Positions 30,507 through 32,716 of a DNA stretch of 64,000 nt are shown here, piece by piece. The translations under genes and the position numbers were made by a program. Each line of letters starts with the position of its first letter. Position 1 is the stretch's first letter. Under the pieces are notes generated by a model, which was not told the DNA's origin, did not search any database, and saw only the letters and a list, made by a program, of their open reading frames with translations. The DNA is taken from positions 23,140 through 87,139 of IMG/VR virus record IMGVR_UViG_3300045988_126932. One strand, 5' to 3'. The stretch is from a virus.

Positions 30507-31241
30507 TTATTTGCGAGCATTTTTCATCTGATCTAATATGGCTTTAGCTTCTTGCTGTCGCTCTTCTTGCTCCATATGATAATCCAATGTTTCTGCACTA
30601 GATTCATACGCAATAGCAACGCCTTTGGCTTGTTCGCTAAGTTTCTTTGCTCCTTCTCGAACCTCTTCCAAACCTTCCTGAGCGGCATTTGAACTATTGT
30701 ATTGATCTAAATTTTTCTGCAATTCTGCAATCTGCTGATCTGCCTCCATCTGGAGAACTACAGTGTCTTTTTCGCCTTTTAGTTTAATAAGCTGATCATA
30801 TGCTTGGTTTTTAATTTCTTCTTGCTTATCTTTTGTTGCTTGCAACTCTGGGATCTTCTTTTCGTACACTGATTTCTGTGCCTTTAACGTGGCTAATTTT
30901 TGAGCATAATACATTGCTTTTTTATCATCATTGTTATCAATATACTGGTTGATCATTGCCTCGGTTTTAGAAATTTCTTCTTTTGTTTCTTTGAGGTCAT
31001 CTTCCATTGTTGCTAATCGACCAGCTACCATTGTGTATGTACCCATTGTTTTCTGGTAGAAGTCCTGCTTATCTTTAATTGCAGTATTATATCTAGCTCT
31101 AGCTCCCTCTGGAGTCATTGCATTTTCTTTGATTTTCTCTGTAACTGTTCCAGATGCTACATTTTTAATCTGCTTTCCATTTTTAGTAAATTGTAAATAT
31201 GCGATAATCACTACAATTACACAAATAATAATAATTGCCAT
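30507..31241 (-). CDS. membrane-anchored coiled-coil protein, PspA/IM30-like
   Basis: An N-terminal TM helix is followed by about 200 aa of coiled coil that loosely resembles PspA/LiaH. The gene lies downstream of the flotillin gene. Confidence 0.35.
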   Translation of the reverse strand: MAIIIICVIVVIIAYLQFTKNGKQIKNVASGTVTEKIKENAMTPEGARARYNTAIKDKQDFYQKTMGTYTMVAGRLATMEDDLKETKEEISKTEAMINQYIDNNDDKKAMYYAQKLATLKAQKSVYEKKIPELQATKDKQEEIKNQAYDQLIKLKGEKDTVVLQMEADQQIAELQKNLDQYNSSNAAQEGLEEVREGAKKLSEQAKGVAIAYESSAETLDYHMEQEERQQEAKAILDQMKNARK

Positions 31242-31255
31242 AATAATTTCTCCTA

Positions 31256-32716
31256 TTAGAACTCACGGTAATCTGCTGGCTCTGGTGTTACAAGATTTTC
31301 ATTATCTGTAGATTCTACTTCGTTATCTTCAGAAACAAAATCTTTTAACATCTTTGCAAGATCAACACCTGTAGATCCTTTAACACCATCTGATACCTGA
31401 TTCACAACATTCATAATATCTTTTGTTAATTTTGTTGTGTTTCCTTCTCCATACATAGTGATACTTCCTACATTTCCTAATGGTGCGGCTGCATTTTTAA
31501 CTGCTTCTGGGAACATCTGACACATCATTTCTACAATAGATGCTTTACCCATCTGTTTCATAGCTTCTGCTTTCTTTTCAATTGCTTCTGCTTCAGCAAT
31601 ACCTTTAGCTTTGATTGCCTCGGCTTCTGCTACACCCTTTGCACGAATACCTTCAGCTTCCTGCTCCATAGCATATTTTGTAGATTCAGCTTCTTTTTCT
31701 TTGGCATATTTGTTAGCTTCAGACTCTTTCTGTCTCTTATATAAATCTGCATCTGCTTTCTGCTGAGAGGCATATCTTTCAGCCTCTGCCTGTTTCTTGA
31801 TCTGTGCATCTAATGTCTGCTCTGTTACCTCAACGTCTTTACGTTTCAGTTCAATTTCTTTTTCCTGACGCATAATATTAGCATCCGCAGTTACAATTTC
31901 AATTTCTTTACGTGATTTTTCTTCCTGAATCTTGTATGCTGCATCTGCCTCAGCCTTCTTTGCTTTTGAAATCTTCTCAAGTTCAGATTTTTTAATTTCC
32001 AGATTGTTATTCTTTTCTGCGATCGCTGTTTCTGACTCAACCCTTGCATCATTCGCTTCTTTTTCAGCCATTGCTTTTGCTTTTTCAATATCTCTTTCGC
32101 TTTCAGCTCTGGAAATTGCAGCCTTCTTCTGAATTTTAACAACATTATCTACACCAAGATTTTCAATAACATCATTATCATCCATAAAATTCTGCACATT
32201 AAAACTGATGATATCTAATCCCATTGCGGCAAGATCGGGCTTCGCATTTTCTGTAACAAGCTGTGCAAATTTCTGACGATCAGAAACCATTTCTTCGAGA
32301 CTCATCTTTCCAACGATCTCTCGCATATTACCTTCAAGAACTTCTCTTGCGACCTGTCCAATATCGCCTACTGGCTTATTTAAGAAGTTTTCTGCTGCAA
32401 GTTTCAATCTTTCTGGATTACTACTAACCTTTACATTGACCGCTGCATCTACATTGATATTGATATAATCTGCTGTTGGCACAGAACTTGATGTCTTAAC
32501 ATCAATTGGAATTAACTCAAGATTAAGATGATCTGCTTTTTCAAAGAATGGAATTTTTAATCCTGCCTTACCAATTAATGTCTTAGGTGTCTTTCTAAGC
32601 CCAGAAATAATATAAGCCTTATCTGGACTTGCTTTAACATAACCGCTACCAATAATAGCTCCTACACCACCAACTGCAACAACCACTGGTACTACTGTTC
32701 CAATTACTTCAATCAT
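31256..32716 (-). CDS. flotillin-like SPFH/band-7 protein (FloT/YuaG-like)
   Basis: An N-terminal TM helix and an SPFH domain are present. The segment REVLEGNMREIVGKMSLEEMVSDRQKFAQLV...AAMGLDIISFNVQNF aligns well with B. subtilis FloT. The C-terminal half has EA-rich coiled-coil repeats. Confidence 0.75.
   Translation of the reverse strand: MIEVIGTVVPVVVAVGGVGAIIGSGYVKASPDKAYIISGLRKTPKTLIGKAGLKIPFFEKADHLNLELIPIDVKTSSSVPTADYININVDAAVNVKVSSNPERLKLAAENFLNKPVGDIGQVAREVLEGNMREIVGKMSLEEMVSDRQKFAQLVTENAKPDLAAMGLDIISFNVQNFMDDNDVIENLGVDNVVKIQKKAAISRAESERDIEKAKAMAEKEANDARVESETAIAEKNNNLEIKKSELEKISKAKKAEADAAYKIQEEKSRKEIEIVTADANIMRQEKEIELKRKDVEVTEQTLDAQIKKQAEAERYASQQKADADLYKRQKESEANKYAKEKEAESTKYAMEQEAEGIRAKGVAEAEAIKAKGIAEAEAIEKKAEAMKQMGKASIVEMMCQMFPEAVKNAAAPLGNVGSITMYGEGNTTKLTKDIMNVVNQVSDGVKGSTGVDLAKMLKDFVSEDNEVESTDNENLVTPEPADYREF

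Follow-up and report, generated by a model that had tools for sequence, protein, structure and literature searches.

The question raised by this locus is why a phage would carry a flotillin gene beside a gene for a PspA/IM30-like protein. The locus lies in a 64,000-nt window of the IMG/VR record IMGVR_UViG_3300045988_126932, and all coordinates are positions in that window unless another contig is named. Its interval 30507–32716 holds two co-oriented open reading frames (ORFs) on the minus strand, one encoding a 486-aa flotillin (31256..32716) and one a 244-aa PspA-like protein (30507..31241). Both ORFs are real, which confirms the observation made in a preliminary description of this DNA and supports the interpretation given there. 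A chance origin of the pair is excluded because each gene has hundreds of homologues and is under purifying selection. The roles suggested there, protection against abortive infection and rearrangement of membrane microdomains, are candidate functions. The PspA-like gene proves to be a constant component of these phages, and the slot upstream of it can be filled in three alternative ways, flotillin being one of them. As to function, we propose from the sequence that the module might keep the host membrane sealed and energised during a long infection cycle, by means of a PspA-like polymer with a flotillin scaffold. We consider this proposal evenly balanced between right and wrong.

The evidence for a constant gene behind a variable slot comes from the 80 best viral loci. 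All 80 have the PspA-like gene, whichever cassette lies upstream. In close relatives the gene order is NAMPT-like, NadE, PM0253, the slot, the PspA-like gene and a divergent HTH_26 gene, and the flanking genes are 88–100% identical at the protein level. The slot contains flotillin in 33 loci that form one lineage, with PspA-like proteins at least 95% identical to that of the window. In eight loci of the same phage lineage (PspA-like identity 73%), flotillin is replaced by a Ca2+-type P-type ATPase, a vWA/TerF-like protein and a TerD protein, and in one locus, L039 (96%), the slot is empty. More distant phages, with PspA-like identities of 41–43%, have an ATPase and three TerD genes at this position (37 loci), and in one further locus (L092; 42%) only TerD was seen, as a partial match. 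The preliminary description regarded the locus as a flotillin with a PspA-like partner. The pairing is real, but this logic has to be reversed, given that it is the PspA-like gene that is conserved.

The abundance of Ter genes bears on a different function, namely superinfection exclusion or competition between phages, in which an altered sub-membrane layer would block DNA injection by later phages or the entry of colicin-like toxins. TerD/TerF genes are the most frequent partners of the PspA-like gene, and Iyer et al. 2021 propose that phage-borne Ter genes build sub-membrane structures that exclude superinfecting phages (PMC7824862). However, this role of phage Ter genes is itself a hypothesis, and an injection block is not a known activity of flotillin or PspA. 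Moreover, tblastn queries with TerD, TerF and the ATPase found nothing anywhere in the 64-kb window, such genes being present only in sister phages. We therefore regard exclusion as a rather unlikely function of this locus.

The boundaries of the exchange are sharp. A blastn comparison of a sister phage carrying the Ter cassette with the window gives breakpoints at 32711 and 31251, and therefore the swap spans exactly the flotillin ORF. The leader upstream of flotillin (32717..32781, minus strand) is common to the window phage and the sister with ATPase, TerF and TerD, with homology extending up to 32711. A spacer of 14 nt (31242..31255, minus strand) separates the stop codon of flotillin from the start codon of the PspA-like gene. 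It reads ...TAA TAGGAGAAATTATT ATG and is kept in the Ter-cassette and empty-slot variants, in which homology resumes at 31251 and 31256, respectively. In L039, a single observation, the stop codon of PM0253 is joined straight to the PspA-like gene, and leader and flotillin are both gone.

Given such exact boundaries, the slot could be a recombination hotspot that takes any cassette, and flotillin could act independently of the PspA-like gene. It might then turn membrane microdomains into a platform on which the phage replicates or assembles, or influence FtsH or signalling in the host. SPFH proteins (HflK/C, FloT) are linked to FtsH, and HflK/C and lambda cII to lysogeny control. The match between swap boundaries and ORF ends is what this explanation predicts, and at least three other phage groups have flotillins with no PspA-like neighbor. 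By contrast, every alternative occupant of the slot consists of membrane or Ca2+-stress genes rather than random cargo, and coupling of SPFH proteins to PspA is documented in bacteria. In some relatives, moreover, a TerD domain stands in place of the TM (transmembrane) helix of the PspA-like protein, as a natural fusion (P0018, P0176 and locus L008 at 6001–7080; 359 aa in L008 and 334 aa in P0176). Such Rosetta-stone-type fusions tie the PspA-like protein functionally to its upstream neighbors, and with them the contents of the slot. An independent flotillin is thus distinctly unlikely in our view.

Read from the sequence, the flotillin leader contains the ribosome-binding site AAGGAG 8 nt before the ATG, and the spacer contains AGGAG, such that a Shine-Dalgarno-like AGGAG stands 8–9 nt ahead of each of the two start codons. 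A consensus scan revealed no sigma-70-type promoter on the minus strand in the 32717..32781 leader. Likewise, no convincing promoter or terminator emerged from consensus scans between and around both genes, where counts did not exceed those in shuffled sequence. It is from the tight spacing of the genes that we infer their co-transcription. The strand composition shifts locally: in 30001–32000 the GC skew is −0.14, compared with about −0.32 in the adjoining 2-kb bins, and the AT skew is −0.23. The simplest explanation of this shift is the E/A/K-rich coiled-coil coding in both genes.

The protein sequence identifies the 486-aa product as a true, full-length flotillin of the flotillin-1/FloT type. 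A hydrophobic membrane anchor occupies residues ~4–22 (32651..32707, minus strand); its best 19-residue Kyte-Doolittle window, starting at residue 4, scores 2.46, and the maximum elsewhere is 0.71. The SPFH/Band_7 domain follows at residues 50–207 (32096..32569, minus strand; PF01145, E=8.1e-24), with 85.1 bits against a Pfam gathering cutoff of 23.6. The C-terminal flotillin domain, located within the E/A/K-rich coiled coil at residues 355–427 (31436..31654, minus strand; PF15975, E=3.2e-6), passes marginally, with 27.7 bits against a cutoff of 27. Residues 29–455 align to residues 5–418 of human flotillin-1 (E=5e-54). The NCBIfam FloT model (NF058507) matches with E=1e-88 and 298.5 bits; since its cutoff is 700 bits, the protein is a member of the flotillin family and not a FloT equivalog. 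The features on which the preliminary description based its assignment to FloT are borne out: in the core it had pointed to, REVLEGNMREIVG and MGLDIISF are both present in the translation, and the tail it had called EA-rich is 54% E+A+K over residues 206–400. The flotillin has no family in PHROGs. Pfam scans of the flanking ORFs found no NfeD/YuaF-type partner gene, the neighbors being PM0253 (PF27390), NadE and the PspA-like gene.

The 244-aa protein had been described as TM-anchored and reminiscent of PspA, and family-level comparisons substantiate both parts of this statement. A profile of 13 family sequences finds Vipp1/PspA first among structures in the PDB (E~5e-4, aligned to Vipp1 residues 5–186). 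With a profile of 97 sequences, the top four matches are solved Vipp1/PspA structures, with E=1.4e-7 to 7e-7 and an alignment to Vipp1 residues 26–186. The Pfam family PspA_IM30 is matched by 12 of 13 close relatives (best E=7.8e-11) and by 56 of 97 broad relatives (best E=6.6e-13), and the next Pfam family is matched by only 6 members. Precomputed annotation also assigns PF04012 to relatives at 73% and 61% identity. The only PHROGs match is PHROG 33389, whose function is unknown. An exhaustive profile search retrieved 251 cluster representatives, 153 of them at E<=1e-10, and nearly all are 240–260 aa long and aligned end to end.

Structure prediction agrees with these profiles. The AlphaFold2 model has a mean pLDDT of 77.5, rising above 90 across the hairpin, and consists of a TM helix (residues 2–18), a low-confidence linker, a long hairpin (44–102/106–182) and two further helices (187–207 and 214–243). 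The helix plan of PspA/Vipp1, in which an alpha1-alpha2/3 hairpin is followed by alpha4 and alpha5, is therefore present. The homologous helical region (residues 44–243; 30513..31112, minus strand) is supported by the model, by alignment of hidden Markov models and by Foldseek, whose best PDB matches are Vipp1/PspA (TM-score 0.5–0.64, E~0.013), with the Vipp1 structures 7o3w/6zvr/9eom on top at TM-scores of 0.54–0.63. The preliminary description made its reading of this protein depend on an IM30-family fold, and the top profile and Foldseek matches leave that reading standing. Residues ~27–43 align to the alpha0/EDP region of Vipp1.

The TM helix (residues 1–19; 31185..31241, minus strand; Kyte-Doolittle 2.8) is followed by the K-rich TKNGKQIK, and a hydrophobic N-terminus with basic residues after it is seen in 96 of the 97 family members examined. 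By the positive-inside rule, the remainder of the protein is probably cytoplasmic. Canonical PspA/IM30/Vipp1 proteins are peripheral and attach through the amphipathic helix alpha0, and PspA also depends on partner proteins to be recruited; the window protein has a variant architecture. Its family is a coherent, phage-restricted subfamily within the ESCRT-III superfamily, with a TM helix ahead of the PspA core. No Psp/Lia partners (pspBC/pspF, liaIF/liaRS) were detected among the neighboring genes.

The preliminary description left room for the region being host DNA, which a change in composition or flanking host genes would reveal. GC content stays within 0.30–0.37 over the whole 64 kb, and the minus strand carries essentially all of the large ORFs. 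Among the products encoded in the window are a Pol III-alpha-type DNA polymerase, a primase, a DnaB-like helicase, RecJ-like and exonuclease V-like nucleases, anti-repressors and recombinases, and phage replication genes flank the locus. The order of the flotillin and PspA-like genes recurs on more than 30 IMG/VR viral contigs of ~140–166 kb and in many human-gut assemblies, one of which NCBI names Caudoviricetes. Matches to the PspA-like family are all metagenomic, on contigs of up to ~175 kb. The family is present in only 3 of 185,579 species-representative genomes, in each case on a contig of a metagenome-assembled genome with the ATPase-3xTerD module. Even composition, phage gene flanks, recurrence on viral contigs and near-absence from species genomes rule out an origin as host DNA or as a prophage within a chromosome.

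The locus thus belongs to a phage of gut Bacillota that is uncultured and ~160 kb in size. In a megablast search none of 50,697 phage records matched the locus, and so there is no close cultured relative among them. The DNA polymerase of the window is at most 36% identical to that of any deposited phage, the nearest cultured ones being Brevibacillus phage Sundance and a Clostridium innocuum phage. The host is probably a member of the Erysipelotrichaceae, because the nearest bacterial relatives of the flotillin lie there.

Two tyrosine-recombinase/integrase-like and two large anti-repressor (Ant)-like genes occur on the minus strand at 42436–43464, 45152–46102, 53555–54649 and 55208–56572, and they may indicate a temperate or episomal lifestyle. 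They bear on the possibility that the module is a "moron" of lysogenic conversion or of a carrier state. A resident phage would give its host tolerance to envelope stress (bile salts, antimicrobial peptides, lantibiotics) and gain indirectly. Besides the two tyrosine-recombinase-like and several anti-repressor-like proteins, this explanation can draw on the divergent Cro/C1-type helix-turn-helix gene that flanks the module in every variant, and on the polymorphism of the slot, which is often seen in accessory cargo. PspA, flotillin and Ter systems are also classic envelope-stress and resistance functions (PMC11237479, PMC8581546). However, the PspA-like family was found in no isolate bacterial genome, its only occurrences among the 185,579 species being the three contigs mentioned. 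In addition, the genes do not sit at the end of a prophage; they lie amid genes for replication, nucleotide and NAD-salvage functions and share their strand. A moron is therefore quite improbable.

Flotillins encoded on the chromosomes of Longibaculum muris, Coprobacillus cateniformis and Lachnospiraceae share 66–74% identity with the phage protein, and the phage gene would have been acquired from bacteria. In Longibaculum the flotillin gene follows a PadR-HAAS regulator pair. Phage flotillins form at least three groups. A phage flotillin at 81% identity adjoins RNase H and a Ca2+ ATPase. The preliminary description called membrane-scaffold and membrane-stress proteins unusual phage cargo. They are less unusual than that, as several phage lineages carry flotillins, and pspA-like and terD genes are known in gut jumbo phages (PMC12880540). 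Within the phage lineage, the ratio of nonsynonymous to synonymous substitution rates (dN/dS) is 0.06–0.12 for flotillin and 0.06–0.11 for the PspA-like gene, indicating strong purifying selection. Flotillin is therefore functional cargo, and the same values rule out that it is a decaying passenger.

Our preferred reading, that the module seals the host membrane during infection, could work as follows. The phage would express the two membrane genes together with its replication and NAD-salvage genes. The N-terminal TM helix would permanently tether the polymer-forming PspA-like hairpin to the cytoplasmic face of the host membrane, where the protein might act as a sealing or remodelling polymer. 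Flotillin, made from the same transcription unit, would be an oligomeric scaffold that organises a membrane patch or aids assembly of the PspA-like polymer, a step suggested by the parallel with Bacillus subtilis, in which the SPFH protein YdjI localises PspA. More generally, the slot may give the PspA-like effector its input, by sensing damage or by organising, as the Ca2+-handling Ter proteins that sister phages place there suggest. The threats met could include membrane-targeting abortive-infection effectors, premature leakage through holins and injection by competing phages.

Several observations weigh against this reading. Locus L039 retains the PspA-like gene without any upstream cassette; thus a physical partnership of flotillin and the PspA-like protein is not required by either of them. 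Conversely, other phage flotillins, at 81%, 63–66% and 41% identity, have no PspA-like gene within 6 kb, which refutes the idea that flotillin is a constant companion of this gene. There is no PspA or NfeD gene near the chromosomal flotillin of Longibaculum. Taken as a single query, the PspA-like protein of the window reaches only E=0.016 and 15.3 bits against PF04012, under the 33.9-bit threshold. Finally, PADLOC returned no significant match to the locus, only coiled-coil noise (JetC, E=0.014), and we dropped a reading as a defence system for this reason.

The neighborhood of the module is suggestive in its own right. Upstream of it, on the minus strand, is an NAD-salvage cluster (33117–36779) consisting of an isochorismatase/nicotinamidase-like gene (36222–36779), a Prs-like gene (35371–36207), a NAMPT-like gene that the latter overlaps (33905–35374) and NadE (33117–33887). 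To judge from their sequences, the Prs-like and NAMPT-like genes resemble NARP1, a phage counter-defence pathway that reconstitutes NAD through Adps and Namat (PMC12774641, bioRxiv 10.1101/2024.02.11.579819). The adjacency of the module to this NARP1-like pair is kept in relatives with the Ter cassette, and such a placement fits a region for counter-defence or host maintenance. A counter-defence role at this position would extend phage counter-defence from the restoration of metabolites to the repair of membranes.

A bolder version of the membrane-sealing proposal is that large gut phages carry an ESCRT-III-like membrane repair system, in which a tethered PspA polymer would be served by interchangeable front ends, either a Ca2+ module or a flotillin cage, and would counter permeabilising abortive-infection effectors. 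The Ca2+ module would comprise the Ca2+ pump, the copine-like TerF and the Ca2+-binding TerD. TerD is a Ca2+-binding protein, and in eukaryotes it is an influx of Ca2+ that sets off repair by ESCRT-III. We find this version doubtful. If true, phages would have their own equivalent of the Ca2+-triggered repair of the eukaryotic plasma membrane by ESCRT-III, and there would be genetic evidence for functional equivalence of flotillin and Ter/Ca2+ modules as inputs to PspA.

PspA and flotillins have a central role in keeping bacterial membranes intact, yet how they work is poorly understood, and knowledge of them comes almost wholly from systems encoded by hosts. The phage lineage described here offers a natural allelic series at one locus, with flotillin, Ca2+-ATPase/TerF/TerD or nothing in front of a self-anchoring PspA homologue. 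This series makes it possible to test what SPFH proteins contribute to PspA function, what role the TerD family plays and whether phages defend the host membrane against immune effectors.

We also note other features of the window and of related contigs. Between the PspA-like and HTH_26 genes is an interrupted tRNA gene (30238–30376, minus strand) with an AU-rich insert of ~67–80 nt in the anticodon arm. It scores 46.4 bits with the Rfam tRNA model, for which the gathering score is 29. With default settings ARAGORN detects no tRNA in the window; only when introns are allowed does it report this one, as "Tyr(ata)" with an intron of 67 nt. The anticodon could be CAT or ATA, according to where splicing is placed. 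A group I intron would be far longer than the insert, most of which is predicted to lack structure. On its opposite strand, GGAGG-N7-ATG opens a 28-codon ORF. Conservation of the interrupted form extends to more than 50 related phage loci.

Further along the minus strand are two tandem paralogues (27662–28195 and 28212–28724) of 177 and 170 aa, which are 41% identical (E=4e-35) and have no Pfam match; the number of genes at this position varies among related phages. An RlaP-type nucleotidyltransferase of RNA-repair pathways and a DHH phosphoesterase are encoded at 21188–22111 and 23312–24265, also on the minus strand. Phage contig L125 likewise has an RlaP-like gene close to its flotillin, and L008 has one close to its TerD/PspA-like module. 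Contig L134 has a weak match to a Tad2-like (Thoeris anti-defence) domain at 8170–8592, 1.2 kb downstream of its flotillin (E=1.3e-4, below cutoff), and L011 has a TnpB/Cas12f-like OrfB_IS605 gene (11550–12458) near its Ter/PspA-like module.

Links between PspA and flotillins in bacteria are already published, as is the terD/pspA-like pair in gut jumbo phages. In our literature searches no account came up of a flotillin/PspA-like pair in a phage, of TM-bearing PspA as a family of phage proteins or of a slot that varies between flotillin, Ter genes and nothing. PspA and Vipp1 are bacterial ESCRT-III proteins, which polymerise on stressed membranes and limit leakage (PMC8281802; PMC11237479). 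The B. subtilis pspA-ydjGHI (pspA-samGHI) operon resembles the window locus in that a gene for an ESCRT-III-type PspA stands beside an SPFH-domain gene, and its SPFH protein YdjI is needed for localisation of PspA to the membrane (PMC8581546). However, YdjI is a soluble, non-flotillin SPFH protein recruited by YdjG/H, whereas the SPFH protein of the window is a true flotillin with its own anchor, and the window locus is on a phage and has no YdjG/H homologues. The PspA-like protein should not need recruitment, because it has its own TM helix.

Bacterial operons of PspA with Band-7/flotillin proteins, and TM-bearing PspA/Snf7 homologues with ABC/PBPB-OmpA genes, were described by Ravi et al. 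2024 (PMC11237479). The former exhibit the same genomic coupling of PspA with a membrane-anchored flotillin-type protein. They add a CesT/Tir-like chaperone, a YqiJ/YuaF (NfeD-type) protein and often an AAA+ ATPase, none of which is at the window locus, and their PspA, unlike the window protein, is not TM-anchored. The TM-bearing homologues, and gp247 of Bacillus phage G, to which the window protein is ~25% identical, have the same N-terminal TM helix followed by PspA-like helices. The genes for gp247 and for a distant homologue on the gut-phage contig MT835556 share a context of ABC-permease/ATPase and substrate-binding/OmpA-MotB genes, which matches that of the bacterial TM-bearing homologues; the window gene has no adjoining transporter or OmpA genes.

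Flotillins build large membrane-attached cages (PMC13000311). The window flotillin aligns over its full length with B. subtilis FloT and with human flotillin-1 and -2, with the same order of anchor, SPFH domain, EA-rich coiled coil and C-terminal domain. It differs from FloT in being phage-encoded, in falling far under the equivalog cutoff and in having no NfeD/YuaF partner gene.

The closest parallel among phages is with the "Jug" jumbo gut phages, in which a terD/pspA-like operon is highly transcribed (Sci Adv 2026, PMC12880540). Here too a pspA-like gene, likened to ours by its description, lies beside terD, and Ca2+-translocating P-type ATPases are encoded by large gut phages, including phages of Bacillota. 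Of the 80 loci related to the window gene, 46 have this arrangement. Bacteroides is the host of the Jug phages, however, and in the window phage the whole ATPase/Ter cassette is replaced by flotillin.

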